64,000 bases of DNA from an uncultured Candidatus Bathyarchaeia archaeon (GCA_964608455.1 CAZSNM010000005.1:4069-68068); one strand, 5' to 3'. Shown: positions 3,034 through 31,344, numbered from the stretch's first letter. Notes: generated from the sequence alone by a model not told the origin. Program-made: numbers and translations.

Positions 3034-3034
3034 T

Positions 3035-4094: not shown

Positions 4095-4136
4095 ATAAGA
4101 AAAACTTTTAAAGCTTATTTTATTTACCGCTTATCT

Positions 4137-9261: not shown

Positions 9262-9610
9262 ACCATTCCCTCTTTTTAGCTATTCCATAAACTATTCCAG
9301 TCAAAATAACAGGAAAAATAGGTAGGAGTAAAATGGATTTTGAAATATGGATAAACAGATTTTTTCCAGTTAAAAACTTGAAAGTAAAACTTCCAAAAGT
9401 TAAAATTAAAGCTTCAAGTTCAACAATTCCAAAAGCTATTAAAAAGGCATAAAATAAAACTCTTATAATCATCGCTATAGAATCCTTTTTAACCCATCTA
9501 TCTCTTTTCCTAACTTTCATATCTTTAATATTTAATATTCCAACTGAAATAAATAAAGTTAATATAACAGCATATGAAGCAAATACTATTAGGGGAAAAA
9601 AATTAACCAT
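9236..9610 (-). CDS. small integral membrane protein (3-4 TM)
   Basis: 124 aa hydrophobic ORF that overlaps the start of the AAA-Lon gene by 26 nt, so probably co-transcribed. Confidence 0.5.
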   Translation of the reverse strand: MVNFFPLIVFASYAVILTLFISVGILNIKDMKVRKRDRWVKKDSIAMIIRVLFYAFLIAFGIVELEALILTFGSFTFKFLTGKNLFIHISKSILLLPIFPVILTGIVYGIAKKREWYELIDEEE

Positions 9611-9682
9611 AAAAATGTTCCCTAGTAAATATTGTTTTTCATCCTCAAAAATATTTCGTTTTTCTTTGGTGATTAATTAAAA

Positions 9683-10810
9683 ATGCTTAGGCATAAAGAA
9701 TGTAAACTTTGCAGTAAAAAAAGCGAGTTAATCTCAAGCATTCTTAACCTTTGTATTAACTGCATTAAAGAAAAACCTGATGAAACTAAACAATTAATAT
9801 TAGAGGCTCATGAATCAATAAGAGCCTTTTATAATCTACCTCCAGTACCTCCTAAATCATTAGGAGGAATTCAATGCAATTTATGCGCTAATGAATGTAT
9901 AATTGGTGTTGGAGAAAAAGGATATTGCGGTTTAAGAAAAAACTTAAATGGAAAATTAATTTCTTTATCCAGCACTGATAAAGCAGTTTTACATTGGTAT
10001 CCTGACCCTCATGTTACAAATTGTTGTAGCGCTTGGTTTTGTCCAGCTGGGACAGGATCAGGGTACCCAAAATTTGCTTATACTAATGGGCCGGAGATAG
10101 GATATAAAAATTTAGCTATATTCTTTTATGGATGTAATTTTGATTGTTTATTTTGTCAAAATGCTTCCCATAAAGATATAGATGAGGCTTCAACAATTTC
10201 CTTAAATGAATTAACTAAGGTAATTAAAAATGATAAAAAATATTCTTGCATATGTTTTTTCGGCGGCTCACCTGAACCCCAACTCCCATTCGCTATATCA
10301 TTTTCAAAAAAGGTGCTTGAAGAAAATCCAAATAGAATAATTAGAATTTGTTTTGAATGGAATGGATGCGGAAACAAGCTTTTAGTTAAAGAAGCTGCAG
10401 AAATTGCTTTTAAAAGCGGTGGAAACATTAAATTTGATTTAAAATGTTTTAATGAAAATTTAAGTTTGGCTTTAAGCGGAGTTTCAAATAAAAAAGCTTA
10501 TGAAAATTTTGAGTTTATAGCTAATGAATTTTATAATGAAAGAAAAGATTTACCAGTTTTAACAGCTACAACGCTTTTAGTTTCAGGATATGTTGATGAG
10601 GAAGAAGTTAAGAAAATTTCAGAGTTTATTGCAAGTTTAAACCCTGAAATTCCATATTCACTTTTAGTTTTTCATCCAGACTTCATGATGAATGATCTTC
10701 CCATAACCCCAAAAAATCAAGCATTAAACTGTTATAAAATTGCTAAAAGATTTTTAAGAAATGTTTATTTAGGAAATATTCATTTGCTTAGCAATTTAAG
10801 AATTTATTAA
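9683..10810 (+). CDS. radical SAM enzyme, PflA/AmrS-like, with an N-terminal Cys4 extension
   Basis: CNFDCLFC (CxxxCxxC) radical SAM motif. Preceded by IQCNLCANECIIGVGEKGYCGLRKNLNGKL, which is typical of AmmeMemoRadiSam/PFL-activase-like enzymes. There is an extra N-terminal CKLC...CINC segment. Confidence 0.7.
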   Translation: MLRHKECKLCSKKSELISSILNLCINCIKEKPDETKQLILEAHESIRAFYNLPPVPPKSLGGIQCNLCANECIIGVGEKGYCGLRKNLNGKLISLSSTDKAVLHWYPDPHVTNCCSAWFCPAGTGSGYPKFAYTNGPEIGYKNLAIFFYGCNFDCLFCQNASHKDIDEASTISLNELTKVIKNDKKYSCICFFGGSPEPQLPFAISFSKKVLEENPNRIIRICFEWNGCGNKLLVKEAAEIAFKSGGNIKFDLKCFNENLSLALSGVSNKKAYENFEFIANEFYNERKDLPVLTATTLLVSGYVDEEEVKKISEFIASLNPEIPYSLLVFHPDFMMNDLPITPKNQALNCYKIAKRFLRNVYLGNIHLLSNLRIY

Positions 10811-10948
10811 ATTTCTATTGCATAGCTATTTATCATTTATTGTTATCTAGAAGAGAAAGCTTTAAATAGTTTTAAGAATAAAACATAATATTTGATTTTT
10901 CACTGTTAAATTTTAATTAAAATAAAATAGTAATGGAGCGCTTTAATA

Positions 10949-12382
10949 TTGGAGGAAAAAATTCAAACATTCAGGTTAATCTCAAATAATTTTTTCACAA
11001 GAAGCTTGTTAAAAAGTATTTCAAACTATTGCGAAAAAGATGGAAAAAATAGACTGGAAATAGGCTTAGAGCTTTATTCAGGAGTTAGAAAAGAAGCATG
11101 TTTAAAATGCAGGGTTACCGAAAAATTTTTAAATTTAATTTTAAAAATCGGTAGAAAAACATTTAACGTTTCAGAGGAGGAAATGAAAAAAACTTTTGCT
11201 GATGCTTATTGGAGAAGAGGGTTAAGCAGTGTAGTTAAAGGATTAGGTCTTTTCGGTGTTACAAAACCATTTACTCCAGGAGCACCATTTCAAGTTGTTT
11301 GGGAAATAACTAAAGCTTGTAATTTAAGATGTAAACATTGCTCAGCTAATGCTGGAGTTGGACTAGATGAATTAAATACAGAAGAAGCTTTAAAAGCAAT
11401 AGATAAACTTGATAAATTTGGTATAACGATTTTAGCCTTCTCCGGTGGAGAACCATTAATTCGAAAAGATTTTCCTAAACTTGCTAAATATGCAGCTGAT
11501 AAAGGAATATACGTAGCTGTAGCTACAAATGGTACATTAATAACTAAGGAAAAAGCGAAAGAAATGAAGGAAGCTGGAATAGAGTATGTGCAAATCAGCC
11601 TTGATGGAGCAGTTCCAGAAACCCATGATCACTTTAGGGGAGTACAAGGTGCATTTAATAAAACTATTGAAGGAATTAAAAATGTTGTAGCTGAAGATTT
11701 CTTTGTTAACGTTTCAACCACTGTAACTAAATTAAATTATAGGGAAATTCCAAAAATACTAGATTTATGCGAAAAGCTTGGTGTAGATTGGTTTATGGCA
11801 TATAATTTTATTCCAACTGGAAGGGGCATCGATATAGCAGAGTTAGATTTGACGCCGGAAGAAAGAGAAAATCTTTTAAAAATGCTTTATGAAAGAATGC
11901 AAAATTCAAATATAGCTATGCTTTCTACAGCTCCTCAACTTGCTAGAGTTTCTTTAGAAGCTTCCTGCCAAAGCGAAGCATTAGTTTTAAGCCACTTTTA
12001 CTCAGCTAAATCAAGGGAAAAAATTAAGAGTTTAGCTGAATTTATAGGTGGATGCGGTGCAGGAAGATTTTATATAGCTATAAAGCCTAATGGTGATATT
12101 CAACCATGCGTTTTTCTACCATTAAAACTTGGAAACATTAAAAGCGATAATCTGGAAGAATTATGGGTAACATCTAAAGTTTTAAAAGATCTTAGAAATA
12201 AAGATGCTTTAAAAGGACATTGTGGAATATGCGAATATAGATATTATTGTGGTGGATGTAGGGCAAGAGCTTATGGATACTTTAAAGACTATTTAGCACC
12301 TGACCCAGGTTGCATAAATAATAACGAGTATTATGCTATGTTGAAAAAAGAAGTTGAGTTAACTCCTGTTATTCAACGTTAA
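10949..12382 (+). CDS. radical SAM/SPASM domain protein
   Basis: CNLRCKHC radical SAM motif and a C-terminal Cys-rich SPASM-like region (GGCGAGRFYIAIKPNGDIQPCVF ... CGICEYRYYCGGC), plus a ~110-aa N-terminal extension. Confidence 0.7.
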   Translation: MEEKIQTFRLISNNFFTRSLLKSISNYCEKDGKNRLEIGLELYSGVRKEACLKCRVTEKFLNLILKIGRKTFNVSEEEMKKTFADAYWRRGLSSVVKGLGLFGVTKPFTPGAPFQVVWEITKACNLRCKHCSANAGVGLDELNTEEALKAIDKLDKFGITILAFSGGEPLIRKDFPKLAKYAADKGIYVAVATNGTLITKEKAKEMKEAGIEYVQISLDGAVPETHDHFRGVQGAFNKTIEGIKNVVAEDFFVNVSTTVTKLNYREIPKILDLCEKLGVDWFMAYNFIPTGRGIDIAELDLTPEERENLLKMLYERMQNSNIAMLSTAPQLARVSLEASCQSEALVLSHFYSAKSREKIKSLAEFIGGCGAGRFYIAIKPNGDIQPCVFLPLKLGNIKSDNLEELWVTSKVLKDLRNKDALKGHCGICEYRYYCGGCRARAYGYFKDYLAPDPGCINNNEYYAMLKKEVELTPVIQR

Positions 12383-12410
12383 GTTTTTTATTTATTTTTA
12401 AAAGATTTTT

Positions 12411-13982
12411 GTGGAGGGAAAATTATTGGTTGAGATCATACTTACTGCTGATAGAACGTTAATGAGTAATTATCATGGAAAAGAATTTCTTGGTTTTGCT
12501 ACTAGTGCTCCACCAAACATTTTGCCAACCTGGCTTTATAAATTTATGTTTTTCCCTCCAATAAAAAATAAAAATGGTATACCGATTGAGGCTCCTTATG
12601 CGCTTAGAAAAATTGAAGCAAAGCTTCTAGATGAAGGGTTTAACGTGCTTACAGTTGATCCGGATCATTTAAAAAAGTATATTAAAAACGCTAAAGTTCT
12701 ATGTGTTCATGTTATGGATCCCTTTGGTTTAGGACCTTCATCAACAACCTTTGCTAGAATTCTTCGTACAGGTGAGCCTTATCTATCAAAATATTTTAAA
12801 GAATTGCTTACAAAGAATGAGGTTAAAGAAGCTAAGAAGCGAGGTTTAAAGATAATTGTGGGTGGTCCTGGAGTTTGGCAATTTAAATATAGAGTTGAAG
12901 AACAAAAAGCTTATGGAATAGATTGTATAGTTTATGGAGAAGCAGAACGTATTATTAGTAATCTTATAAGAAAAGCTTTAAATGGGGAAGAGTTACCAAG
13001 CTATTTTGAAGTTAACCTTTATGAATTACCAAGTTTAAACGAGATTTCAGAAATTAAAAACCCTTCAATTAATGGTTTAATTGAAGTTGGTCGTGGATGC
13101 CCTAGAGGATGCGATTTTTGCAGCGTAACCCTAAAGCCTTTAAGATGGTACCCGCTTGATAAAATAGAAAAGGAACTTCAAGTAAATGTTAAAGGTGGGT
13201 TAACTTCAGGCATTCTTCATGCTGAAGATGTGCTTCTTTATGGTTCTAAATCTGTTATTCCTGATAGAGAAAAAGTTCTTGAATTACATAAATTAACTAA
13301 AAAATATTTAAAGAATTTTTGTTGGAGCCATGTTAGCATAGCAGCTATAGCAGCTGATCCAAAATTGTTTAAAGAAGTTTCAGAAATAATTATTGATGAA
13401 AATCAAAAATGGTGGGGTGCTCAAATAGGTATAGAAACAGGTTCACCTAGATTAGTTAAATTAACTATGCCAGCTAAAGCTAAGCCTTTTAAACCTGAAG
13501 AGTGGCCTTCTGTTGTAAAGGAAGCGGCAGGTTTAATGAATGATTATGGATTGATACCTGCTTGCACATTGATTACAGGTTTACCTGAAGAAACTGATGA
13601 AGATGTAATTAAAACCATAGAATTAATTGAAGATTTGGATTGGTTTAAAAGTATGATCGTTCCGTTATTTTTTGTTCCCATGGGTAAATTAAAGAATAAA
13701 GATTGGTTTAAATATGAAGATTTAACAGAGTTACAAAAAGAATTGATGGTTAAATGTCTCAGTCATGATATTAAATATGCAAGGGAAATTATGGATTGGT
13801 ATATTAAGGAGAAATGGTATAGCCCTATATTAAGAAGGCTTTATGATTTGTTTATTTGGTTAATAGAGCGTAAAGGGAAAAAAAGCAAAATTTTTGAATA
13901 TCAAAAAGTTTCAGTTTTTCATAAGGAAAGGGAGGAAATTAAAGAGGTTGAAGCTGTTAAAAGAGGCTACTACTATTGCTGA
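12411..13982 (+). CDS. radical SAM enzyme with an N-terminal B12-binding-like domain
   Basis: GCPRGCDFC CxxxCxxC motif preceded by a ~200-aa Rossmann-like N-terminal domain; 523 aa. Confidence 0.65.
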   Translation: MEGKLLVEIILTADRTLMSNYHGKEFLGFATSAPPNILPTWLYKFMFFPPIKNKNGIPIEAPYALRKIEAKLLDEGFNVLTVDPDHLKKYIKNAKVLCVHVMDPFGLGPSSTTFARILRTGEPYLSKYFKELLTKNEVKEAKKRGLKIIVGGPGVWQFKYRVEEQKAYGIDCIVYGEAERIISNLIRKALNGEELPSYFEVNLYELPSLNEISEIKNPSINGLIEVGRGCPRGCDFCSVTLKPLRWYPLDKIEKELQVNVKGGLTSGILHAEDVLLYGSKSVIPDREKVLELHKLTKKYLKNFCWSHVSIAAIAADPKLFKEVSEIIIDENQKWWGAQIGIETGSPRLVKLTMPAKAKPFKPEEWPSVVKEAAGLMNDYGLIPACTLITGLPEETDEDVIKTIELIEDLDWFKSMIVPLFFVPMGKLKNKDWFKYEDLTELQKELMVKCLSHDIKYAREIMDWYIKEKWYSPILRRLYDLFIWLIERKGKKSKIFEYQKVSVFHKEREEIKEVEAVKRGYYYC

Positions 13983-18021: not shown

Positions 18022-18215
18022 ATTATAAGCTTTATAAATATTTAAAATTGACTTTTTCTTGTTAAAAAACAGCTTTACTTCATAAATTTTTTATTTGTAT
18101 TTATTCATACGTTTATAAATAGTTAAAAGTATTAGTATAACGTTACGTATATTATTTACTTTAATAGAAAAGTTTAAATACTTTAACGTTTAAAATAAAA
18201 ATATGTGAGTGGAGC

Positions 18216-18674
18216 TTGAAAATAAGAATAACCCTTCATAGAAGTTATGGAGATATAGAAATTGAAGGTGAAACCTTCGAGGAGGTAATAGAAAATCTTA
18301 AAGGTTTCCCAGAATGGCTTGAAGTTATCGATAGCATGATAGCTGCAAGCTCCAGCGTAAGTGAAAAAGAAATTCTTAAAGGGATAATTCAAAATACGCC
18401 TGATGGTCCCTTAATAACTGTTTCTAGAGAAAAATTAACTGATAGAGAAGCTGTAGGGTTGCTTCTTTATGCTATGGAACCTAATGGATTAAAACCTAAA
18501 GAATTAAGTCGATTATTAAATTTAAGCGGTTTTCTTTCAGTAGGTTTTGCCAGCAGACTCAGCGAATTAAAGCGAGAAGGTCTAGCCTATAAAGAAGGTG
18601 AAGTATATAGATTAACTGTTTCTGGAAAAAAATGGATAGAAAAGTTAATTTCCTCATTTAAACCAGGAGGTTAA
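18216..18674 (+). CDS. wHTH protein, paralog 1 of 3 (unknown family)
   Basis: 152 aa with a C-terminal winged helix (SRLSELKREGLAYKEGEVYRLTVSG). Shares architecture with the two ORFs that follow. Confidence 0.55.
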   Translation: MKIRITLHRSYGDIEIEGETFEEVIENLKGFPEWLEVIDSMIAASSSVSEKEILKGIIQNTPDGPLITVSREKLTDREAVGLLLYAMEPNGLKPKELSRLLNLSGFLSVGFASRLSELKREGLAYKEGEVYRLTVSGKKWIEKLISSFKPGG

Positions 18675-18677
18675 TCT

Positions 18678-19175
18678 TTGAGCGAAGAAAAAAAGATAGA
18701 GGTTTATTTAAAGCATAAAGATTTCGAAAAGAAAATTGTAGGAGAAGTTGATGAAGTTTTAAGAGAGCTTATCTCATTTTTAACAGAAATTTATCCTAAA
18801 ATGGAGTTGGCTTCAAAACTCTCATTAACAGTTGATGCTAATGATTTAATAAATGCATGTCAAGGAATAATTGCTGTGACGCCAGAAGGAGTTGTAACAT
18901 TAGTTGATGTTGAAACATTACCAGATAAAGAATTAATTTTATTTCATTTAGTAAAAGCAAAAATCAGCAGGTTGCTTAATAAATCTGAAAAGGAAAGCCT
19001 GCTTATTAGCGATATCCTTTCCTCAACAAAACATAGTGTTGGAAGCGTTGCAGGTAGATTAAGCGAATTATGTTCTGAAGGTTTCGTGGAACGAGTAGGA
19101 AAGGGCGAGTATAGAATAACAACTTATGGTTTAGATTATTTTTTAAAAAATGTCGTTCCAAAATTGAAGGGGTGA
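18678..19175 (+). CDS. wHTH protein, paralog 2 of 3
   Basis: 165 aa with GRLSELCSEGFVERVGKGEYRITTYG. Its start lies 4 nt after the paralog-1 stop. Confidence 0.55.
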   Translation: MSEEKKIEVYLKHKDFEKKIVGEVDEVLRELISFLTEIYPKMELASKLSLTVDANDLINACQGIIAVTPEGVVTLVDVETLPDKELILFHLVKAKISRLLNKSEKESLLISDILSSTKHSVGSVAGRLSELCSEGFVERVGKGEYRITTYGLDYFLKNVVPKLKG

Positions 19176-19181
19176 AAAAAT

Positions 19182-19700
19182 ATGAGTGCTAATGAAGAAA
19201 AAAAAGTTAGAGTTCAAATAGAATATAATGGATTAAAACATAGTGTAGAGGGTTCAGTTGAAGAAGCAATAAAAGAAGTGGTAAATTTTCTTTCTAAGGT
19301 ATGTCCCACATACGATGTAGCTTCAAAAATTATTTATGCGCCAAATTATATAGAAATTTTAAATGATCTTTCAGAAATAGTTAATTTAACTCCAAATGGG
19401 GAACTAATACTTTTAAAGCAAATACCTTCAACAGATGAAGCTATAGGAGTGCTTCTTTTAGCTGTTGAAGTGGCTTATAAACTTGGAAAAAGAAAAACAA
19501 ACGCTTTAAGCGCCGAAGAGTTAACAAAAATTCTTGGCAAAGCTGAAAAAACCATTAGAAACACTATAGCTGAAATGATTAAAGCAGGGTTAATTGAAAG
19601 AATTGAAAAAGGAACATATCATATTACAATCGTTGGTGTAAAAGAAGTAAGTGAATTTATAAAAATGCTTAAAGAAACTTCGGAAGATAAACAAAAATGA
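19182..19700 (+). CDS. wHTH protein, paralog 3 of 3
   Basis: 172 aa with NTIAEMIKAGLIERIEKGTYHITIVG. Its stop overlaps the next start (ATGA). Confidence 0.55.
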   Translation: MSANEEKKVRVQIEYNGLKHSVEGSVEEAIKEVVNFLSKVCPTYDVASKIIYAPNYIEILNDLSEIVNLTPNGELILLKQIPSTDEAIGVLLLAVEVAYKLGKRKTNALSAEELTKILGKAEKTIRNTIAEMIKAGLIERIEKGTYHITIVGVKEVSEFIKMLKETSEDKQK

Positions 19701-20818
19701 CATTTAATTTAAAGGAGGGAAAAAGAATTAAAACAAACGATATATACGCGTCGTTTAGAAATTCAATAATAAATGAAGTTTTTTTAAATGAAAAAACTCA
19801 ACTGTTAAAAGAAGAGTTAATTCCAAATTTCCTAATTAAATTAAGCGATTTTTCAATGAAAACAATGAGAGATTCCAGTTCCAATTTTATTCAAGCTTCT
19901 CCAGAATTGGAATTTGATGATGAACCTCAATTATGTTTAAATATTAAAGAGGAGTTAAGCGAACCAATTCCCATTTATCCAAATTATAAGGATTCAACAA
20001 TAATTGCTATTGATGTCTCAAGTATAAAAATTGGAGAGACAAATGATGGTGTTATATGTGCCATTAGAGGAGCTGTTGTTTGGAGAAAACAAGGAGAAGT
20101 AAACTTTTTCAGATGCGGACCATTAATTTTTCATATAACCGATTTTATTATTGAACAATTATATGGTAATGTAGGAGTTAAAGCTTTAGAGTTTCCTATA
20201 GGGATAGTTTCAAGACTTAGGAATTTACTTGAAAGATTTATTCAAGGAAATGTATGCACCCACTTTAAAGATTCAATAATTCTTTTTGATGGAAGTTTAA
20301 CAGCTGGCACTCCTGATAATCCAACTAACAGTTTAACTCAAATCCTTTCTAAAGCTAAAGAAAATGGAAATATTGTTTTAGCAATTTCAAAAACTACTAA
20401 AATAGGTTTATCAGGAGTTAAATTGTCAGAGCTTCTAAAAAACTTTAAGGGACCGTGTCTTTTAGATATAGATGAAAGTATAAGATCGCTTTTTCCAAAT
20501 CATCCAGTTCAACTTCTTGGGAAAGTTTATGCAACTAAACTTTCAGCTAAAGGTTTATCTTTTAGACTTGATGTAGATAGAAAAGTAGATCTTAAAGAAA
20601 CAATAGATTCTTTAGGAAAATTAATAGTAAATGATATTATAGATTACGGGTATCCAGATACTTTAAGGCTTGCTCATATATTTTCATCCTTTACAGCAAG
20701 TGATGTTATAGGTATACAAAGATTCCTTTCAAAGAAATTTAAGATACAAATAGTTCCAAAAATTAATTTAAGAAGAATTCTCTTCGGTCCATTTGGAAAT
20801 CCAATGGAGGTTTCCTAA
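19697..20818 (+). CDS. NurA-like nuclease domain protein
   Basis: 373 aa with an N-terminal IIAIDVSS motif resembling the NurA DGS catalytic motif. Translationally coupled on both sides. Confidence 0.45.
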   Translation: MTFNLKEGKRIKTNDIYASFRNSIINEVFLNEKTQLLKEELIPNFLIKLSDFSMKTMRDSSSNFIQASPELEFDDEPQLCLNIKEELSEPIPIYPNYKDSTIIAIDVSSIKIGETNDGVICAIRGAVVWRKQGEVNFFRCGPLIFHITDFIIEQLYGNVGVKALEFPIGIVSRLRNLLERFIQGNVCTHFKDSIILFDGSLTAGTPDNPTNSLTQILSKAKENGNIVLAISKTTKIGLSGVKLSELLKNFKGPCLLDIDESIRSLFPNHPVQLLGKVYATKLSAKGLSFRLDVDRKVDLKETIDSLGKLIVNDIIDYGYPDTLRLAHIFSSFTASDVIGIQRFLSKKFKIQIVPKINLRRILFGPFGNPMEVS

Positions 20819-22257
20819 TGAAAATTTATAAAAAGGAAGGTGATGTAATTCAAATAATAAGTTTTCCAAATGAAATTGTGGAGAAAGGAGATTATCTTTT
20901 AATTGAAGACCCAATTGTAGATAAAGGTCTTTTAGTTCAAGTTATAGATATTCAATTCGCAAATGTTCCAGGAGTATTTGAAGATATTTTAAGAGATGCC
21001 GTGTTAGAGGAAGGAATTGAAGGAGAAAATTATGATCCAATGGAGGTTTCCTCTCAAATATCAATATTAAAAGATACAAAACTTTTAGTATGTAGAATAA
21101 GAGGGGTTTTAAGTAATGGAGAAATAGTTTTTGGAATGAATTATTTACCTTCAAGAACTTTATCTAGAATAATTCCATATAAAATTGAGAATTTTATTAA
21201 TTCAACAAGTAGAAGCAGACCTTTTCAAGTTGGAAAAATTAGGGGAGAAGCAGAATTAATTTTAGATGTTAAAGCTTTAGATGGAAAATTAAATATTGTA
21301 ACAGGAAGGAAGGGTACAGGAAAATCTCATTTAGCTAAGCTATTAATTTTAAACTTAGTTAAATATGGTGCTCCATGCATAATCTTCGATATAAACGGTG
21401 AATACATAAATTTAAATAAGAAAAAAACGGGGGAAACTTTAAAATTTGGTAAGTTTATAACGTTAACCCCAAAAATTAATATGAAATTTACTTTATCTCA
21501 AGCTAAGCTTACTCCAGTATTAAATATGATGATTTATTCATTAGATTTGCCAAGCACTTCAGCTAGAGTTTTTATCAAGATTTGGAGAGAATTAGAAAGG
21601 AGAGGAGAATTAAATTTAACTTCTTTAGGTGAAGCCATATTAAAATGGGATTGCCATGAAAGCGTTAGAGATGCATTATATGCTAGATATAATATGATTA
21701 TTGAATCTGGGTTATTTACAGATAATATTAATGAATCTTTAGATTTTGAATTTTTAATGAAAAGCATATCAAATGGTGGAGTTGTTGTAATTAATTTAAA
21801 GAATCAACCAGCTATGATTAGAAAAATGATTGTTGAATTAACGCTTAATAAGCTTACGGAGCTTTTATCAAACTGGAAGCTTCAAGCAATATTTTTATTT
21901 GCTGAGGAAGCTCATCTTTATTTAAGAGAAACCTATTGGGATGATATAGTAACTAGAATGAGACATCTTGGAATATTTACAACTTTTATAACTAATCAAC
22001 CTGATACAATTCAAGAGACAATTTATCGACAAGCCGATAACATTTTCCTATTTAACTTTTCAAATGAGCATGATTTAGAGGTTGTTTCTAAAGCAGCTAA
22101 AATAGATTCTGAAACAATTAAAAAAATAGTTAAGGAGCTCCCACCACATTATTGTTTAATAATAGGAGATGTAGTAAATAATTTTCCAGTGGTAGTGAAA
22201 GTTGAACCGCTTGAATTTGAAACGATGGGGGAAACAAGATTCTTCTTTAAAAACTGA
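20818..22257 (+). CDS. HerA-like (DUF87) HAS-barrel P-loop ATPase
   Basis: N-terminal HAS-barrel-like beta region, Walker A GRKGTGKSHLAK immediately followed by IIFDINGEY (HerA/VirB4-type), and Walker B IFLFAEEAHLYL. Confidence 0.65.
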   Translation: MKIYKKEGDVIQIISFPNEIVEKGDYLLIEDPIVDKGLLVQVIDIQFANVPGVFEDILRDAVLEEGIEGENYDPMEVSSQISILKDTKLLVCRIRGVLSNGEIVFGMNYLPSRTLSRIIPYKIENFINSTSRSRPFQVGKIRGEAELILDVKALDGKLNIVTGRKGTGKSHLAKLLILNLVKYGAPCIIFDINGEYINLNKKKTGETLKFGKFITLTPKINMKFTLSQAKLTPVLNMMIYSLDLPSTSARVFIKIWRELERRGELNLTSLGEAILKWDCHESVRDALYARYNMIIESGLFTDNINESLDFEFLMKSISNGGVVVINLKNQPAMIRKMIVELTLNKLTELLSNWKLQAIFLFAEEAHLYLRETYWDDIVTRMRHLGIFTTFITNQPDTIQETIYRQADNIFLFNFSNEHDLEVVSKAAKIDSETIKKIVKELPPHYCLIIGDVVNNFPVVVKVEPLEFETMGETRFFFKN

Positions 22258-23091: not shown

Positions 23092-24087
23092 TTACAACTT
23101 AGGCAATAAACCTTTTTCCATATCTATTATATATGGAAGCCATGAATGAAGATGGCGGCGCCTCACCATTTTAAACACCCTGATATAATTTTCAGTTTTA
23201 TCTTCTATTTCTTCAATTTTCATTTCTATAACACCATCAGCTATTTCCTCGCAAGCAGCCAAGATAGCTGGATGAAAAGCTTTTCTATTTAAAGTAACGA
23301 AACATAAAGTTTTAGATTCCTTAATTTTACCTGCCAAGCTTCTTAAAAACTCTAAAGAACTTCTAACTCCTCCTTTTTGAATTAATGTGCTTAATGAATC
23401 AAATATAACAATAGGTGAATTAAACTCCTTTAAAATTTTAGAAATAATTATGCTTAAATTTGGAAAGTTTAATGGATCCTCACTATATTTTTCTTTGCTT
23501 TTTATTCCAGCTTGAGAAGAATAACAATCAATAAAAACTAGTTTATTTTCTTTTTCGAATGGTAATGGATTAAAACCAAATTCAAGCATAAACTCTCTTA
23601 TTTCATCAGGAAATTTATCTAAAGTTACAAATAACCCTTTTCTACCAGTTGAAACTTTCTCGCATAAAATTTGAAGAACTAAAATATCTTTACCAGCAGC
23701 TGGATCAGCTAAAATTAAAATTAAACCTGAGGAGGGAAAACCATCTGGAAGAAGCTTATCTAAAATTTCAACATTTATTTTTTCAATATCTTTGGTTAAC
23801 TCAAATGTTACATTTTCCTCTTTAGTTAAATCCTCTAAAACAAGTTTTTGAAGTTCTTTATCTACTTCAGAATTAAATGAATAATATTTAATTTCATTAA
23901 GTAAACCTAATTTAACAAAATCTTCAATAGCTTTTTTCACTTCTTCAATAGGCTTATTAATTTTTGAAGCTAATTCATTAAGGCTTCCGAAAAAAGAGGG
24001 GTTCTTGTGAAAAAAAATTAAAAGCTCAGCTTTAATATCTGAACCTAAAAGTTTATCAAATATAATTTTGCGTTTCTCAATTGACAT
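23092..24087 (-). CDS. KaiC/RadA-like RecA-superfamily ATPase with N-terminal wHTH
   Basis: P-loop LILADPAAGKD in a KaiC-like domain (GLFVTLDKFPDEI) and an N-terminal HTH-like region. Confidence 0.55.
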   Translation of the reverse strand: MSIEKRKIIFDKLLGSDIKAELLIFFHKNPSFFGSLNELASKINKPIEEVKKAIEDFVKLGLLNEIKYYSFNSEVDKELQKLVLEDLTKEENVTFELTKDIEKINVEILDKLLPDGFPSSGLILILADPAAGKDILVLQILCEKVSTGRKGLFVTLDKFPDEIREFMLEFGFNPLPFEKENKLVFIDCYSSQAGIKSKEKYSEDPLNFPNLSIIISKILKEFNSPIVIFDSLSTLIQKGGVRSSLEFLRSLAGKIKESKTLCFVTLNRKAFHPAILAACEEIADGVIEMKIEEIEDKTENYIRVFKMVRRRHLHSWLPYIIDMEKGLLPKL

Positions 24088-24447: not shown

Positions 24448-25851
24448 TTAAGCTTTAACCCATTTTTCCTGTAGAAATTTAGAGATTCCAGAGGAATCCA
24501 TAGGTCCAACAAGAACTTTCCATCCTGTAAGCTCTTCTATTTCTCCACTAAGTCTAGAAGCTCTTCCAGGAATAATTATAGTTTTATGCTTAACTTTATT
24601 TTCAATTCCACTTCCCTTAATGCTTTCAGCAACTTTTTCAGCTGTAAGCTTTCTTCCAGCAACAGCACTTTCAACAGAAAGCCCTTCAGTGTCGACCACA
24701 AGCAAATAACAATCGATTTTGCTAGCTTCAATATCTGAAGCGACTGTATAATATGTTAAAGCAAAATTTGTTGTTAAAAGAATTGGAGATTCTTCAGTTG
24801 GGTTTCCGAAAACTTTAATGCCAGTTTCTACAGCTACAGGTTTTCTAGGATCAGTATATAGATTTTGCCTAAGGATTGTTAATGGAAGTAAAACCCAACC
24901 ATCAAGGCTATGCATTATTAAAACATCAGCATATCTAGTTATTAGCATTGATGCAAGGCAAGCTTCTTTCCATGCTGTTACCTCTGGAAATTCACTAGGT
25001 TCTATCCAAACTATTGCTGGAACACCAATTAATGGAAAACCCAAAAGTTCATCTTCTTCTTTGCATGCAGCTCTTCTTAACATCGTGAAATTATTTAATG
25101 TATCTGCAAGTCCGTTCCAAAATGTTCCAGGATCTAAAACTAGATCTTCAACTCCATAGGCTAATAATGTTTTTGTTAAAGATTTTAAAGTTCTTAAATC
25201 ATTTGGTGAAAAAACAGTTAATGGACATTTATACATTAATGAAAGTTCAGCCATTTCTTTCCAATTCTCTTTTGTAGCACCATAAATCAATGGTTTTTTA
25301 CTGGAAACCTCTATTAATCCGGCCTCCATAACATTTGGATCTAAAGAACATAAAATTAATGGAAGATTTGTAATTGAAGAAACCTTTTTAACAGTTGCCT
25401 TAAATGTATCTGGATCATTTAAAACAGATCTAATAGCAATTAAATCAAGCTTCAAATTTTGTCCAATATATGTATATGAAAAACTTTCAGCTTCCTTCAC
25501 TCTTTTAACTATTTCTTCTTCAGGCATATCATCTGAAACATCTATGGCAATAGCTGTTGGATTATGATATGTTAATTCATGCCTATACATAACTAGTTTA
25601 CCACCAATTTTAACAATGTTGCTTCCAGAACCTATAGTAACTTCCTTTACTGGAGGCTTAAGCATTTCCCATAAAGCTTTATATTCGTTTTTATATTTTT
25701 CAGTTAAAATAGGTGGGCATTTATCTAATGTAACTTCTCTATTAACAAGTTTAGCAGCAAAAGCCATGCAGTTTTCTTCTCCACATTCCTTACAATTAGT
25801 TTTAGGCAAATATTTATAAACTTCTGTTGGGCTTAAAGTTTTTTTAGGCAT
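24448..25851 (-). CDS. cdhE: ACDS gamma subunit (corrinoid Fe-S protein large subunit, CdhE/AcsC)
   Basis: N-terminal 4Fe-4S motif CKECGEENCMAF...DKCP; 467 aa; last gene of the cdh operon. Confidence 0.8.
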   Translation of the reverse strand: MPKKTLSPTEVYKYLPKTNCKECGEENCMAFAAKLVNREVTLDKCPPILTEKYKNEYKALWEMLKPPVKEVTIGSGSNIVKIGGKLVMYRHELTYHNPTAIAIDVSDDMPEEEIVKRVKEAESFSYTYIGQNLKLDLIAIRSVLNDPDTFKATVKKVSSITNLPLILCSLDPNVMEAGLIEVSSKKPLIYGATKENWKEMAELSLMYKCPLTVFSPNDLRTLKSLTKTLLAYGVEDLVLDPGTFWNGLADTLNNFTMLRRAACKEEDELLGFPLIGVPAIVWIEPSEFPEVTAWKEACLASMLITRYADVLIMHSLDGWVLLPLTILRQNLYTDPRKPVAVETGIKVFGNPTEESPILLTTNFALTYYTVASDIEASKIDCYLLVVDTEGLSVESAVAGRKLTAEKVAESIKGSGIENKVKHKTIIIPGRASRLSGEIEELTGWKVLVGPMDSSGISKFLQEKWVKA

Positions 25852-25858
25852 TTTATTA

Positions 25859-27064
25859 TCACCTTTTTAAGCTTGTAATCCAATTATAAATTTTTTCAGT
25901 CTCTTCTTTAACAGTTAATTTTTTAATTACTTCCTTAACGGTTTTAACAGCAGCAGGATGCATCATCATAAAATAGTCTACCCCAGCCAAAAGCAAAGTT
26001 AAGGCTGAAACAGTTTCCCAAATTGGTCCCCTAAGCTCCTTGGGACCCCATTTTGACTCCATAGTCATCCAAGCTTCTCTAGCAGCCCAAGCATTTGTTG
26101 TTCCTGAAGAAATTGGATGTTGAAGTTCAGCATCACCCATTAATGCGGCTAATCTAGTTCTTTCCATAACTGTAAAAGCATAATCTAAACCATAACCTAA
26201 AGCAGCTGTTGTTGTATCAATTACAATCTTATTTTTAGGTAAAAATTCATATAATTTACGATTTAATTCCCTAGCATCATCCATATTCATAGCTGTAAAA
26301 GCTATAACACAATGATTGTGTTTTTTAATGGCTTCCGCAACTTTTTTGATATCCATGTTTAAAGTTACTGAATTAAATAAAATGTTTTCTCCTTCAGCAA
26401 CTTCAGCAACTTTCTCGAAAACTTTTAAATCTTTTTCCGGATCACCACAACCACCAACAGTTAAAGGAACATCAACTGCTTGAAGAACGTCCTCAACTGT
26501 TTTAGCTGCTTCTGAAGGTTTAGTATCCTTAAGAAGGGGATCTATGCTTACTAAATGAAGGTTTATTACTTCAGCACCCCACTTTTCCACAGCTTTTTTA
26601 GCCCATGCTACAGGATCCTCAAGAACATCTTCCACATGCATTTTTACAGCTTTAGCTAAAGGAATCTTCATATCAAAAACATCTATGGAGATTACTGGAG
26701 GGTTTGGCGGTGGCGATTCAAAAAGATAAAATGCTGGTGCTTTTTCACCTCCTATAGTTACTGTTTTACCTCTTGAGCCTCCCTCGCTTTTAGTTGCACC
26801 AATTTTAACCTCAACTATTTCTCCAGGATATTTCATTATTGGTGGATGAAACTCCTCCTCTAAAATCTCTTTTGGTTTAACTTTTGGAGGAGCCTCAATT
26901 TTAGGTAATGGAATCCGGCTTATAAAAGGTTGAAGTAAAAACTCTAATTCTTTAACTTTTATCTCAACATTTTCAAGCTCTATTTCTTGAAATTCACTTA
27001 AAAGCTTAATTATGTCAAATCCAAAATCACTAAAATCTTCTTTTTCCTTATTCTTTTTGCTCAT
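25859..27064 (-). CDS. cdhD: ACDS delta subunit (corrinoid Fe-S protein small subunit, CdhD/AcsD)
   Basis: 401 aa TIM-barrel-like ORF between cdhC and cdhE; stop/start overlap with cdhC. Confidence 0.7.
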   Translation of the reverse strand: MSKKNKEKEDFSDFGFDIIKLLSEFQEIELENVEIKVKELEFLLQPFISRIPLPKIEAPPKVKPKEILEEEFHPPIMKYPGEIVEVKIGATKSEGGSRGKTVTIGGEKAPAFYLFESPPPNPPVISIDVFDMKIPLAKAVKMHVEDVLEDPVAWAKKAVEKWGAEVINLHLVSIDPLLKDTKPSEAAKTVEDVLQAVDVPLTVGGCGDPEKDLKVFEKVAEVAEGENILFNSVTLNMDIKKVAEAIKKHNHCVIAFTAMNMDDARELNRKLYEFLPKNKIVIDTTTAALGYGLDYAFTVMERTRLAALMGDAELQHPISSGTTNAWAAREAWMTMESKWGPKELRGPIWETVSALTLLLAGVDYFMMMHPAAVKTVKEVIKKLTVKEETEKIYNWITSLKR

Positions 27065-28461
27065 TTAGTTTTTCCCTCCCTTCTAATTATAGCTTTTTTA
27101 GCCGTTATTGTTGCGTCTTTTAAAATAATTTTGAATCCTCCTCCAGTTGTTAAGGGAAGAGTTGAAGCTTCCATTACAATAGGTGGCGCTTCTTCAATTT
27201 TTGGTGCAGCAACCTCTTCTTTTTTCTCTTTTTCTTCGATCTCCTTCCATCTTTGAATCACAGGATGATTTTTACTTTTAAGAAAGTTTTTTAATTCTTC
27301 TATTGTTTTAACATCGTTTTCAGTAGCTATTTTATCCACTATATCTTTTGGAATAAAATCTTTAACTCTTTCTTTAATACTGGATGGCATCCATACAATT
27401 CTATTCCATCCACCATCAGCTTGAAGAAATTTTGAAGAACGCATATATTCTATTGAGATTCCATGAAAACCATCAACTTGTCTACCTCCAGCTGTTGAAT
27501 CGGCCATAGTTGAAAACGGCAAACCGTTTACAGCTACACCTTTAAAATCTCTATGAATTATTCCAAGCCCATCAACCTCAGGTATATAAAAGGCTATTGC
27601 TTCAAAGCATCCACAAGAAGTATGAGGATAGTTAAAAGCTGTGTAAAGCCATACTCTTTCAATTTCTCCAAGTGATTTTTTCTTAACAGCCTCATTTACA
27701 CCACTCCATTCTCCTTTAAACGAATCTAAAACTTTTCCAACTTCTATTTTAAATATTGGACCTTTAGGATCTACTCTTGCAGCTGCTCTTCCATCAAACC
27801 AGCTTATGGCTCCGCAATTAGCATATCTTTGTGGGGTTATTACACATACATGGGTTGGAGCAAAAGATTGACAAAGTGTACAACCATAAAAACAATCCAC
27901 TTCTTCATCTTTTAATCCTCTAGCTCTAGCATCTCTTTTTTCATAAATTTCTCTAGCTATTTTTTCCATTTCTTTAACTTTTTCTTGATCAGTAATAAAT
28001 GTTATTTGAATTTTTTCTATTATTGGAAGCTCGCTTTTAAAAAGTCTTTGAAGGACTTTCCCTATTAAAATAAAGGAGTTTAAACCTTTTTTAAATGATT
28101 TTTTGCTTAACCTTAACCAGATATCATATCTTTGATTTAAATGCATAAAGCCTTCAATATAATTACAATATTCATGTATTCTTCTTTCTATAACGCCTTC
28201 AAGATCTTCTTCAATTTCTTTTCCAGCTACTTCAACAAGAATTCCTAGAGGATAACTTTTTCCTTCTTCTAAATCCTTAATATCTGGGCCTATAATTTGA
28301 ATTTTTCCATCTTCTATTTCATCCATTTTTCTAGCTTTTACAAGTTCAAATTTATTTTCTACTTTTGGTCCTCCAAACTCAACATGCATATCTGGCTTTC
28401 TAATTCTTTCACCTTCATAAATAACTCCAACATCAACTGGAATATCACTAAACATTGACAT
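27061..28461 (-). CDS. cdhC: ACDS beta subunit (acetyl-CoA synthase, CdhC)
   Basis: A-cluster motifs CFYGCTLCQSFAPTHVCVITP and HTSCGCFEAIAFYIPE; 466 aa. Confidence 0.9.
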   Translation of the reverse strand: MSMFSDIPVDVGVIYEGERIRKPDMHVEFGGPKVENKFELVKARKMDEIEDGKIQIIGPDIKDLEEGKSYPLGILVEVAGKEIEEDLEGVIERRIHEYCNYIEGFMHLNQRYDIWLRLSKKSFKKGLNSFILIGKVLQRLFKSELPIIEKIQITFITDQEKVKEMEKIAREIYEKRDARARGLKDEEVDCFYGCTLCQSFAPTHVCVITPQRYANCGAISWFDGRAAARVDPKGPIFKIEVGKVLDSFKGEWSGVNEAVKKKSLGEIERVWLYTAFNYPHTSCGCFEAIAFYIPEVDGLGIIHRDFKGVAVNGLPFSTMADSTAGGRQVDGFHGISIEYMRSSKFLQADGGWNRIVWMPSSIKERVKDFIPKDIVDKIATENDVKTIEELKNFLKSKNHPVIQRWKEIEEKEKKEEVAAPKIEEAPPIVMEASTLPLTTGGGFKIILKDATITAKKAIIRREGKTK

Positions 28462-28465
28462 AATT

Positions 28466-28996
28466 TTAACCTCCTTCTAAAGCCTTAATTAAAATATTTA
28501 AGCTTTTAATCCAATCGTTTATGGTTAAATTTGGAAAAGACCATGAAGCATGAGGTTGATAAAATCTATCAAGAGAAATCGTTATAATGTTTGAAAAATG
28601 TTTTATTCCGGAAAGTACAAGCCACTCTACATAATATGGAATAGCTATAAATAATGCTAGATCATGTGAACCTAAACCATCAACTCCACTCCAGTTTGGA
28701 TCTATAAGTTTGCTTCCAACTTCCACTATAGACATAAGGGAAACTGGAATAAACTTTTTAATTTCAGCGAAAGATTTTCCAGATGCCACCACAGGTATTT
28801 TTCCTGCTTTAGCAATTTTAACAATATATTCTATGAGTTTAATTTCATTGTTTGTTTCTTCAACAGCTTCATGACCAACTATAAGCACAGGATGTTTAGC
28901 TCTTTTTATTAATGTAGCTGCAACCTCAGGTTTTTGAATTATAAAACTTTTTGTTGGACCTGGAATTTCAGCTTTTTGCCATGGTTCAGCAGCCAT
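28466..28996 (-). CDS. cdhB: ACDS epsilon subunit (CdhB)
   Basis: 176 aa ORF immediately downstream of cdhA, in the conserved operon position. Confidence 0.7.
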   Translation of the reverse strand: MAAEPWQKAEIPGPTKSFIIQKPEVAATLIKRAKHPVLIVGHEAVEETNNEIKLIEYIVKIAKAGKIPVVASGKSFAEIKKFIPVSLMSIVEVGSKLIDPNWSGVDGLGSHDLALFIAIPYYVEWLVLSGIKHFSNIITISLDRFYQPHASWSFPNLTINDWIKSLNILIKALEGG

Positions 28997-28998
28997 TT

Positions 28999-31344
28999 TT
29001 ATTCCCTTCTTTTTCTAATTAATCTCGGTAAAAGTGTTGGATCAGGAATAATATTTTCTTTCCATCCCTTCTCCTTTAAAAATTCTAAAACTTCATCTTT
29101 CATAGTTATCGGTATGTCGGCAACTGTTCTAACGAATAGATGAAGATCATTAGGTAATGTTCCATATATTTTTTTATGCAAATCTATATAATGGGTAAGC
29201 TTTATTGCTCGCCCCTTTGTTGTATCATTTGGTCTCATGCAAAGCTTTGGAATCATAACTATCGCTTCTTCTTTACTTTCAGCTGAATAAAACAAATGTT
29301 CTGGAACTGGTCCAACATAAACTTTTTCTCCAGTTCTAGCATCATAAACATACCAATCTTCTTGATTTTCTTTTTTTCCTAAAAGCATTCTTCTATATTT
29401 AAATCCATGAGGGCCGACTATAACTGGTATTCCCAGCCTCCAAAATCCGCTGGCTATTGAAGCAGCTTTTTGAGACATTGCTCCCCAACCTACTCCAACA
29501 GCTCCAACTCTATTTAAAATATAATCAGCTATTTCCTCATAGTTTCCACGAAGTCTTCGTTTAGCAAATATGCTTGCTATTTTTATAGCTGCTCCAGCTA
29601 TATGAGAATTTGAAACACATGAACCAACATTGCTTACACCTCCAGCATCGAAAACTCCAGGATACATTTCATAAATTGTTTTTCCTTCACCATTTTTGTG
29701 CATAGCCATAGACATTGCTGCGCAGCCTGAAGCAACAATTATATAGTTTCTTTTAGCAAATTCCTCAGCCATTTCAGCAACCTCTTTACCGCTTTTAGGG
29801 TAGTTAGCGCATCCAACAAATGCTATAACGCCTGGAATTTCACCTAAAACTATTGGGCTTCCAACCTGACGAATTTCAACATCTTGAATAGCTCCTCTTC
29901 CAACTCTAATTTTAAATTTTTCCTCTTTAAGATTTTTCTCTGCAGCAACCTCCATAAAAGAATGAATGGGAAGGTCAATTGGGCAAGCGCTTTCGCATCT
30001 ACCGCAACCTATGCATAAATCCAGTAAATCAGCTAAATTTTTTAAATTTCCTTTTGAAGCTTCTGTTAATGCTTCAGGAATGGGCAAATTGTTTGGGCAA
30101 GCTCTGGAACATTCAAAACATTTTCTGCATTTTTTAGCTCCTTCAATAACACCTTGAATATCTGGAATGGCTTTAAATTTAGCTCTTTTAGGTGCAACTA
30201 ACAAAGCTGTTTTAACAGCAATTTCCCCCACTTTTTCTGGATCAAGTATTAAAGCACCCGGTATCACACCATTAACTAATTCATTAATTACATTGGTAGG
30301 CTGCTCAAAGGTTTTATCAATTAGACCTAAACAATTTTTCTCGCTTGTAGCAATTAATGGAGCTTTAATTTTTTGAGCTTCACTTAAGGCATCAGCCCTA
30401 ATGCATTGTTCATCCACAACAATTACATCTGGAATTCCAGATCTAATAAATCTTAACTGCCAAGATATTGGTCCGACAATTTTAGCTTTAGGATCATATC
30501 TTGAGAGGTCATGCGCTGTACAGCATATTCCACAAACTTCAACTTCATTTTTAAGTCCATTATCCTCTAAATAATCAACGATGCTTATAGCTGATGGAAC
30601 ATTATGACCTATAACAAGAATTACTGGTTTAGAGTTATCAACAACTCCAAAACCTATTTCAGTTAATGGGGCGTCAGGATCAGCTTTAGGAAAGCCATAA
30701 GCAGAAATCTGAGCTATATCAGCTACCTCCATAGCTGTATGATCAAGCATTCCTGCATGGAAAACCTTTGATTCAAAATCTATGAAACTCCCTTCTTGTC
30801 CAGTATGAGTGGCTGAAAGCAACTTTACTATTTCCCTTTCTACATAATTTAAAACTTCTTCCAAATCTCCTAATGTTTTAGGTCTTATTCCACAAACCAA
30901 TCTAATAATTGGAGCTTCAACTTCAACGCTTACACCTCCAACGTCTATTGGCCATTTTCTACCATATTTCTCTATTAAGTGCTCTACTAAATGTCTAGCA
31001 TGAGCTGTATGCGTAGCAGCACCAATACAGCATGCTAATAAAACTATTCTTGATTGTTGAGCAGGCATTGTTAAACCGCAAGCACCTTTTTTATCCTTTG
31101 TTAAATCGCATTTACCCATTGTGCATAAGCAGCAAACATCGCAAAAAGGCATATAAAAAGGTTTGTATCTTTCAAGAAGCTTTAAATCCCAATTTCTTAA
31201 ATCTGAAATAGATGGGAAAGGTGTAGGACCAGTTTCTTCCTCCCAAGCTTCCTCAAGAATTTTCCCAATAGAAATTTCAAAATCTTTTATTTCACCTAAA
31301 CTTGTTTTTAATTCCCCTATTTTTAGCTTTAAGGTTTTACTCAT
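28999..31344 (-). CDS. cdhA: ACDS alpha subunit (CO dehydrogenase catalytic subunit, CdhA)
   Basis: 781 aa with multiple Cys clusters (CDVCCLC, CRKCFECSRACP, CIGCGRCESACP ferredoxin-like inserts) and CODH C-cluster-region Cys/His. Confidence 0.9.
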   Translation of the reverse strand: MSKTLKLKIGELKTSLGEIKDFEISIGKILEEAWEEETGPTPFPSISDLRNWDLKLLERYKPFYMPFCDVCCLCTMGKCDLTKDKKGACGLTMPAQQSRIVLLACCIGAATHTAHARHLVEHLIEKYGRKWPIDVGGVSVEVEAPIIRLVCGIRPKTLGDLEEVLNYVEREIVKLLSATHTGQEGSFIDFESKVFHAGMLDHTAMEVADIAQISAYGFPKADPDAPLTEIGFGVVDNSKPVILVIGHNVPSAISIVDYLEDNGLKNEVEVCGICCTAHDLSRYDPKAKIVGPISWQLRFIRSGIPDVIVVDEQCIRADALSEAQKIKAPLIATSEKNCLGLIDKTFEQPTNVINELVNGVIPGALILDPEKVGEIAVKTALLVAPKRAKFKAIPDIQGVIEGAKKCRKCFECSRACPNNLPIPEALTEASKGNLKNLADLLDLCIGCGRCESACPIDLPIHSFMEVAAEKNLKEEKFKIRVGRGAIQDVEIRQVGSPIVLGEIPGVIAFVGCANYPKSGKEVAEMAEEFAKRNYIIVASGCAAMSMAMHKNGEGKTIYEMYPGVFDAGGVSNVGSCVSNSHIAGAAIKIASIFAKRRLRGNYEEIADYILNRVGAVGVGWGAMSQKAASIASGFWRLGIPVIVGPHGFKYRRMLLGKKENQEDWYVYDARTGEKVYVGPVPEHLFYSAESKEEAIVMIPKLCMRPNDTTKGRAIKLTHYIDLHKKIYGTLPNDLHLFVRTVADIPITMKDEVLEFLKEKGWKENIIPDPTLLPRLIRKRRE

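Follow-up and report, generated by a model that had tools for sequence, protein, structure and literature searches.

A small winged-helix protein family linked to a distinct NurA-HerA pair in Bathyarchaeia and other Thermoproteota

HerA and NurA form the archaeal end-resection engine, which is reported to be essential in Sulfolobus (PMC4351679). In a 64-kb stretch of DNA (~30% G+C; hereafter the window) from an uncultured Candidatus Bathyarchaeia archaeon, five coupled open reading frames (ORFs) at 18216-22257 (+) code for three small winged-helix (wH) paralogs (A, B and C), a nuclease of the NurA family and an ATPase of the HerA/DUF87 type. To our knowledge, the targeting of HerA-NurA has been studied only alongside Mre11-Rad50, and the locus raises the question of what kind of NurA-HerA pair this is and what a trio of wH proteins contributes to it. 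Judged from sequence comparison, the trio-linked HerA and NurA form their own clade, distinct from the Mre11/Rad50-linked pair. NurA-HerA pairs, their paralogy in Thermoproteota and the presence of accessory proteins in one such cluster are already known; the papers searched contained no account of the beta-beta-alpha plus wH family, of its fixed set of three or four members or of the near-invariant way in which it is tied to a distinct HerA/NurA clade.

The five genes and their products

The preliminary description of the locus had proposed five tightly packed genes on one strand, coding for three wH paralogs, a NurA-like and a HerA-like protein; all five component assignments hold, and the ORFs were found with exactly the proposed boundaries (Table 1). 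Its gaps of 4 and 7 nt at the first two junctions are coordinate differences, so that the close packing stands while the real spacers, read directly from the sequence, are 3 nt between A and B (TAA-TCT-TTG, with AGGAGG upstream) and 6 nt between B and C (TGA-AAAAAT-ATG). Both stop/start overlaps could be read in the sequence, the stop of C and the start of NurA sharing ATGA, and NurA and HerA being joined by TAATG with GGAGG upstream. The start of gene A is consistent with orthologues beginning MKVRVVLHR. By eye, a TTTAAATA box was read at 18173-18180, ~36 nt ahead of this start, and the intergenic region that contains it represents a putative archaeal promoter.

Table 1. Features of the winged-helix, NurA and HerA gene cluster in the window
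Feature	Coordinates	Strand	Description
Putative promoter region	18022..18215	+	AT-rich intergenic, 5' of gene A
Paralog A	18216..18674	+	152 aa, TTG start; acidic beta-beta-alpha N-module and basic winged helix
Paralog B	18678..19175	+	165 aa, TTG start; GTVAGRLSEL recognition helix, GKGEYRIT wing
Paralog C	19182..19700	+	172 aa; winged helix closest to Csa3 and AbiEi
NurA-family nuclease	19697..20818	+	373 aa; Pfam PF09376
HerA-family hexameric-type ATPase	20818..22257	+	479 aa; Pfam DUF87, PDB 4d2i match, hhalign

A, B and C (18216-19700) share one reading frame in the window, a stop and one codon (A/B) or two codons (B/C) lying between them, and stop-codon read-through would give a fused A-B-C protein. 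The paralogs of locus L001 use different frames; the shared frame is thus not conserved in relatives and is probably incidental.

The first three genes proved mutually paralogous, as had been proposed, with BLASTP E-values of 9e-18 (B-C), 1e-9 (A-C) and 4e-8 (A-B). The proposed architecture of an N-terminal beta module and a C-terminal winged helix is supported by the alignments and by an AlphaFold2 model of B, the best-conserved member of the family (26 sequences; predicted local distance difference test score, pLDDT, 84.6), which runs from a beta-hairpin (7-22) through three helices (24-60) and another hairpin (65-74) to a classical winged helix (83-147), followed by a C-terminal helix. Residues 1-80 modelled alone reached a pLDDT of only 54.5 and are confident only inside the full-length model, which suggests packing of residues ~50-80 against the winged helix and an autonomous N-module that is a beta-beta-alpha unit of ~40 residues. 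Natural variants fit this boundary: the two module copies of the kinase fusion P0243 begin at profile position ~39, and a 133-aa ORF in locus L086 (8019-8420) consists of the N-module alone. In all four classes of paralogs described below the charge is split between a basic wH half (about +4, isoelectric point ~9.4-9.7) and an acidic N-module.

No Pfam or NCBIfam model reached its curated cut-off on A, B or C. The best sub-threshold Pfam matches were AbiEi_4 (20.1 bits, cut-off 25) and HVO_A0261_N (13.8-18.8 bits, cut-off 35), and the matches to MarR, ArsR/HTH_5, TrmB, AbiEi_4 and HVO_A0261_N were all below the gathering cut-off, though the fold is that of a winged helix. PADLOC matches of C were weak and confined to the wH region (Csa3, 3.6e-7; AbiEi, 4.6e-7), a profile search of 1.84 billion representatives returned only 406 clusters at E <= 1e-3, and the literature searched for the gene cluster yielded no description of the beta-beta-alpha plus wH family, its set or its linkage to NurA-HerA. 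On these searches the trio constitutes a small, undescribed family, in agreement with the preliminary description, which had not recognized the triplicated component. Its wH domain resembles those of Csa3, AbiEi, MarR and DtxR-type regulators and of HVO_A0261_N, but the family is set apart from them by its own N-terminal beta-hairpin and helix module, by a helix and hairpin extension of the winged helix, by the lack of a CARF, toxin-partner or metal-sensing domain, and by its occurrence as a fixed set of three or four paralogs.

The identification of the fifth gene product as a HerA-like ATPase was confirmed by several lines of comparison. Pfam DUF87 (PF01935) matched with 52.1 bits against a cut-off of 23.2 over model positions 2-218 of 220; the best solved relative was Sulfolobus HerA (PDB 4d2i, E 7e-8, residues 133-472), and hhalign against canonical HerAs gave a probability of 99.5% (E 1.3e-22, residues 8-473). 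Walker A (GRKGTGKS, 163-170) and Walker B (FLFAEEAH, 359-366, with catalytic E363-E364) are present, and the motifs are invariant in orthologues. The HAS-barrel model PF09378 gave no direct Pfam match in the window HerA; the one pointer to this domain is that residues 8-130 align with the barrel region in hhalign to a profile including PF09378-positive HerAs.

The NurA assignment passed the PF09376 check by a narrow margin (25.5 bits against a cut-off of 21), with the match covering nearly the full model (positions 2-249 of 254). Most NurA orthologues carry a PF09376 match, and some are named "DNA double-strand break repair nuclease NurA" by PGAP. A cross-lineage alignment shows D106, E179, D198(G199), D292 and H327 to be conserved without exception in Bathyarchaeia and Nitrososphaeria-type sequences alike, and these residues may correspond to the RNase-H-like acidic/His catalytic set of the published active site. 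The window NurA had no PDB match, either by single sequence or by profile, and no PADLOC match.

Conservation and linkage of the cluster

The closest homologues of the cluster were proteins from Candidatus Bathyarchaeia metagenome-assembled genomes (MAGs), 91-96% identical. Gene order was scored, with hidden Markov models built from our own alignments, in the 80 loci that a scan of GTDB species genomes had yielded. The paralogs are followed by NurA and then HerA on the same strand in 64/64 of the species loci whose sequence extends 3.3 kb or more downstream of B, and the NurA-HerA spacing across the surveyed loci has a median of 1 nt. A metagenome scan with the Nitrososphaeria-type subfamily gave a further 80 loci from soil, peat and marine samples, and NurA and HerA were both present in 29/31 of those with at least 3.5 kb downstream. 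The neighbourhood survey called for in the preliminary description therefore recovered the proposed co-occurrence, and the five-gene arrangement, repeated to this extent in related loci, is far beyond chance.

Four orthologous classes of paralogs were distinguished in Bathyarchaeia: B, C, A (which adjoins B, as in the window) and A′, which lies 0.5-2 kb upstream and is sometimes set apart by inserted genes, e.g., in L003. The pattern A′-B-C was found in 42 loci, A′-A-B-C in 12, A-B-C in 11 and in the window, and B-C in 13, many of them with a truncated flank. The set per locus is fixed as at least one A-type member together with B and C; many genomes have a fourth paralog, of which no copy was found in the window.

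In the divergent loci L083-L088 the trio precedes a different NurA/HerA pair, with Pfam scores of 67-71 bits for NurA and 40-43 bits for DUF87 of HerA; this HerA lies outside the main clade in a neighbour-joining tree. hhalign between the window-type and the L083-L088-type NurA clades, with four sequences per profile, was not significant, and both clades were tied to NurA separately through Pfam. Since the pair that follows the trio in these loci is non-orthologous, the link of the trio to NurA and HerA survives replacement of the enzymes.

Two apparent losses of the enzymes were rejected. Five divergent loci, including two closed ~1.1-Mb chromosomes, had seemed to lack NurA and HerA, as narrow profiles missed the pair that follows the trio, and the Ca. 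Wolframiiraptor contigs L008/L009 end before the genes in question, which their longer relatives L096/L097 carry.

Distant members of the family belong to Nitrososphaerota/Aigarchaeota (Ca. Wolframiiraptor, Ca. Geocrenenecus) and to Nitrososphaerales, and the module, as traced by homology, ranges over Bathyarchaeia, Nitrososphaeria including Ca. Nitrosocosmicus, and Aigarchaeota-type lineages. The Aigarchaeota-type loci L096/L097 show the order GatD-GatE, two paralogs, one inverted paralog, NurA, HerA and Ogg glycosylase. Nitrososphaeria-type loci hold three genes with the N-terminal signature of the family, one of them upstream (~165 aa) and one inverted (~135 aa), and their recurrent neighbours are GatD/GatE, glycyl-tRNA synthetase (GlyRS), PhoU and an XRE-type HTH gene. 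The inverted gene was aligned by hhalign with the Bathyarchaeia family (90.5%, E 1.3e-6) and with the upstream gene (97.7%, E 1.3e-12); membership of the upstream gene rests on transitivity, because its direct alignment with the Bathyarchaeia family is weak (6.8%). Nitrososphaeria-type NurAs score only with the window-type profile. In a rough neighbour-joining tree the linked HerAs of all three lineages fall into one clade, with 38-46% identity across classes. One HerA cluster (at least 90% identity) contains proteins of Ca. Nitrosocosmicus franklandus, N. hydrocola and sp. FF01 that carry only an ATP-binding/DUF87 annotation, and the occurrence of this HerA in cultured Ca. Nitrosocosmicus makes the function of the cluster directly testable.

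An Ogg-HhH gene (8-oxoguanine DNA glycosylase-type) overlaps the end of the wH-linked HerA in L096 (11524-12147) and L097 (3755-4378), which suggests co-transcription of HerA with a base-excision-repair enzyme. Cluster contigs L054, L063, L065 and L067 were found under bacterial bin names (Methylomirabilota, Acidoferrum, Dormiibacterota, "bacterium"), and NurA orthologue P0202 is labelled [Eubacterium] cellulosolvens; both probably represent mis-binned or contaminating Bathyarchaeia DNA.

Relation to known NurA-HerA systems

The canonical HerA-NurA system of Sulfolobus, Pyrococcus and Thermococcus (herA-mre11-rad50-nurA) comprises the same two enzyme families, encoded by adjacent and translationally coupled genes, with Walker motifs and NurA-type acidic/His residues conserved in both; a ring translocase and a dimeric nuclease acting on DNA ends (PMC3326311, PMC5715905) are presumed for the trio-linked pair too. 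The trio-linked HerA, however, lies in a separate clade with 16-19% identity to Mre11/Rad50-linked and other HerAs, and it scores only 25.2 and 29.3 bits with the NCBIfam HerA equivalogs NF040819 and NF040937, whose cut-offs are 970 and 800. Moreover, the trio-linked pair is mostly not linked to mre11-rad50 and is accompanied by three or four wH paralogs, which the canonical system lacks. In the 64-kb window no homologue of Mre11 or Rad50 was detected by phmmer with the Bathyarchaeia proteins, in agreement with what had been proposed, and the two largest ORFs code for a Lon/AAA+ protein and a CarboxypepD_reg protein, not for Rad50.

Genes for Mre11 and Rad50 were found beside the trio cluster only in the divergent loci L083, L085 and L086, and in none of ~75 Bathyarchaeia and 80 Nitrososphaeria-type loci. 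In L083 and L085 they lie divergently beside the trio. Locus L086 carries a canonical rad50-nurA-herA-mre11 operon (43-4244) and, ~2.3 kb downstream, the trio-NurA-HerA cluster (6520-11111), and the canonical operon stands alone in Bathyarchaeia L090 and L091. Because the canonical operon coexists with it in some Bathyarchaeia, the trio-linked NurA-HerA is, on sequence grounds, an additional, paralogous system and not a relocated canonical one. Only ~65 close clusters were obtained for the canonical operon versus more than 1,100 matches for the trio-linked NurA.

The possibility that the locus is an ordinary Mre11-Rad50-HerA-NurA double-strand-break repair operon, split and with unrelated regulators upstream, is essentially excluded by these data. 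The PGAP name of some NurA orthologues, the adjacency of mre11-rad50 to the trio in L083 and L085, and the listing of herA/nurA among homologous-recombination genes in literature on ammonia-oxidizing archaea (PMC7554672) would agree with it, but the equivalog scores, the low identity to Mre11/Rad50-linked Bathyarchaeia HerA, the presence of both clusters in L086 and the separate canonical operon of L090 and L091 do not, nor does the 64/64 and 29/31 linkage, by which the wH genes are not incidental. The preliminary description was therefore right to set the pair apart from canonical repair HerA/NurA, and neither of the outcomes it had named as damaging, namely enzymes without NurA or HerA similarity and a split ordinary repair operon, was observed.

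A lysyl-tRNA synthetase gene (PF01921) lies just downstream of the canonical operon in L090 (11973-13564) and ~2 kb from the trio cluster in L003 (13413-15110) and L005 (13864-15489), which could reflect positional equivalence of the two systems or coincidence.

Thermoproteota are known to keep several specialized NurA-HerA machines (PMC3396285). The nurA-csm6-herA cluster of Thermoproteales (Bernick et al. 2012, PMC3396285) likewise contains a NurA-HerA pair that is paralogous to the recombination pair, separate from it and vertically inherited, and, as far as gene content goes, it likewise has accessory non-enzymatic or sensor protein(s) in the same cluster. Its accessory protein is Csm6 (CARF-HEPN), encoded beside CRISPR arrays, whereas the window cluster has three beta-beta-alpha plus wH accessories without CARF or HEPN and no CRISPR/cas neighbours. 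The bacterial systems Sir2-HerA and DUF4297-HerA, and mad8 of MADS, likewise combine a HerA-family ATPase with an effector nuclease or NADase; in contrast to these, the effector here is NurA instead of Sir2 or DUF4297, the HerA matches are partial and weak, and the trio cluster is core-chromosomal and vertically inherited and does not lie in a defence island.

Function of the winged-helix trio

We consider it about an even chance (probability roughly 0.5) that the cluster codes for an ancient, vertically inherited helicase-nuclease machine of Thermoproteota, in which dedicated wH subunits bind DNA and load or gate it, and which has a housekeeping role in genome maintenance, most likely the processing of chromosomal DNA ends or forks. 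By analogy with characterized HerA-NurA, HerA would act as a ring ATPase pulling DNA, and a NurA dimer would digest the DNA so pulled. The N-modules would hold the small proteins together in a hetero-oligomer, with the winged helices as its DNA-binding parts, and the trio might recognize the substrate, or load or gate the helicase-nuclease, a role like that of Mre11-Rad50 for the canonical pair. This reading is favoured because the linkage is strict in Bathyarchaeia, Nitrososphaeria-type loci and L096/L097, the set of paralog classes is fixed, the genes are translationally coupled and the HerAs form a single clade with co-clustering NurAs; because the link of the trio outlasts replacement of NurA and HerA in the divergent loci; because repair genes lie nearby (mre11-rad50 in L083, L085 and L086, and Ogg after HerA in L096/L097); and because of the further partners of the module and the housekeeping flanks with GatDE synteny described below.

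The module is met again alongside nucleic-acid enzymes and effectors. P0243 joins a Ser/Thr kinase to wH modules of both the B-like and the C-like kind, and this Rosetta-stone fusion hints at joint action of B and C; in P0367 the module is fused to DUF488. Locus L092 (1082-5982) codes for a wH-only protein, an ORF with an "ECK" motif, the module joined to a ~200-aa domain, an XPB/PbeA-like helicase and a TIR-like plus wH protein; the ~200-aa domain has a PD...E.K motif (putative PD-(D/E)xK) and no Pfam match, and in the last protein an A′-like winged helix is fused to the TIR-like effector domain (PADLOC E 8e-12). L092 is a defence-like locus and may be a separate, uncharacterized system. The range of partners (kinase, TIR-like, DUF488, XPB-like) with which the module occurs suggests that it is an adaptor domain open to reuse.

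These fusions also bear on the explanation that the wH proteins are not subunits of a machine but ordinary transcription factors that autoregulate nurA-herA, e.g., by derepression after DNA damage. The C-terminal domain is indeed a classical winged helix-turn-helix (wHTH) resembling the MarR, ArsR, DtxR and Csa3 regulators, databases list some members as "ArsR family regulator" or "wHTH transcriptional regulator", the paralog genes come first in the operon beside the promoter region, and one Nitrososphaeria-type paralog is divergently transcribed, a common layout for regulators. A single regulator would suffice, though, and yet three to four paralog classes have been kept over class-to-phylum-level time, in close coupling with the enzyme genes through gaps of 3-6 nt and stop codons that overlap the next start. 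Furthermore, the conserved acidic N-module occurs in no matched regulator, the fusion partners are enzymes (kinase, DUF488, TIR-like) instead of ligand sensors, and the trio is retained when a non-orthologous NurA/HerA pair substitutes. We therefore regard autoregulation as unlikely, though worth keeping in mind.

The genomic setting was examined with regard to defence. The operon neighbours in the window are genes for a thermosome, RNA polymerase subunit Rpo6, a DUF5679 zinc ribbon, a PyrK-like flavoprotein, a wHTH-KaiC ATPase and the carbon monoxide dehydrogenase/acetyl-CoA synthase (CODH/ACS; cdh) cluster; in relatives the flanks differ by lineage and contain housekeeping genes, with GatDE in some. 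PADLOC matches within ±12 kb were restricted to generic AAA+ and radical-SAM domains 7-12 kb away. No defence-island context was found in the window or in the relatives' flanks examined, and no known anti-phage system in PADLOC matched by its gene set, the only matches being partial ones of HerA/mad8 and of the wH region. Conserved GatD/GatE synteny that extends into Nitrososphaeria- and Aigarchaeota-type genomes argues for vertical inheritance.

Anti-virus or anti-plasmid immunity, in which the wH proteins would sense foreign DNA and unleash NurA-HerA on it, nevertheless has points in its favour. The top PADLOC matches of HerA are mad8 (68 bits) and defence HerA (62 bits), though both are partial and weak, and the winged helix of C resembles that of Csa3/AbiEi; the CRISPR-linked nurA-csm6-herA paralog cluster of Thermoproteales (PMC3396285) and the bacterial Sir2-HerA and DUF4297-HerA defence systems (PMC11472057, PMC11291478) provide precedents; and modules of the family occur in the defence-like locus L092 with its TIR-like effector and PbeA-like helicase, and next to a HEPN/nucleotidyltransferase pair in L006/L007. 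Against it speak the housekeeping neighbours with only generic PADLOC matches, the occurrence of the cluster in all surveyed Bathyarchaeia loci instead of a patchy distribution, the synteny with GatDE and aminoacyl-tRNA synthetase genes conserved across classes, the 38-46% HerA identity across classes, a slow evolution untypical of defence genes, and the lack of a known system-level partner (Sir2, DUF4297, Csm6). An immune function thus appears rather improbable, and the defence and mobile-element framing of the preliminary description was not borne out.

In L006/L007 (7173-8513), a Nitrososphaerales-labelled MAG, the solo family member directly follows the HEPN/nucleotidyltransferase (MNT-type toxin-antitoxin-like) pair, with no NurA or HerA within 8 kb.

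Several observations weigh against a genome-maintenance machine with wH subunits. The proposed complex of the trio with NurA-HerA is read from gene content and order, and small wHTH proteins at the head of an operon are often plain transcriptional regulators. The N-terminal half folds with low confidence when modelled alone, so that its predicted fold and its part in oligomerization would both need proof; the Pfam score of the window NurA is only just above the cut-off, and no solved NurA was recovered with its profile. A family member occurs without NurA or HerA nearby in L006/L007, L117 and L119, and the mad8 and defence HerA matches, together with L092, would fit a role in immunity.

If the wH proteins are subunits of the machine, they would represent a new way to recognize or gate DNA substrates for a ring translocase-nuclease, and routine annotations such as "hypothetical", "ArsR regulator" and "ATP-binding protein" would be corrected. 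A further-reaching proposal, which we put forward as speculative and doubtful, is that the trio functionally replaces Mre11-Rad50 as a hetero-oligomeric sensor-loader of DNA ends or stalled forks for a second, ancient HerA-NurA resection machine, and that mostly mesophilic Thermoproteota process their double-strand breaks chiefly by way of this machine; the lineages concerned would then include the globally abundant Bathyarchaeia and soil ammonia oxidizers.

Other genes in the window were recorded as side observations. Convergent with the downstream neighbour of the cluster, a gene at 23092-24087 (minus strand) codes for a 331-aa protein with an N-terminal wH-like region fused to a KaiC/RecA-type ATPase domain (Pfam KaiC 109 bits, DUF7504). 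The 914-aa product of 6517-9261 (minus strand) has an nSTAND3 domain and two AAA domains together with a Lon_C protease domain (PADLOC IetA 140 bits, E 3.6e-41) and could be either a defence-type ATPase-protease or a generic AAA+ match. Three consecutive radical-SAM genes lie at 9683-13982 (plus strand); one is SPASM-type (PADLOC pVip 86 bits), and another has a B12-binding domain. Together they may serve in the maturation of a peptide or cofactor, and the pVip (viperin) match is likely a generic radical-SAM similarity. The CODH/ACS cluster at 24448-33363 (minus strand) includes two CdhD-type genes and a Prismane/CODH alpha gene, and its beta subunit is duplicated, with two CdhC/ACS-beta genes of 466 and 637 aa.

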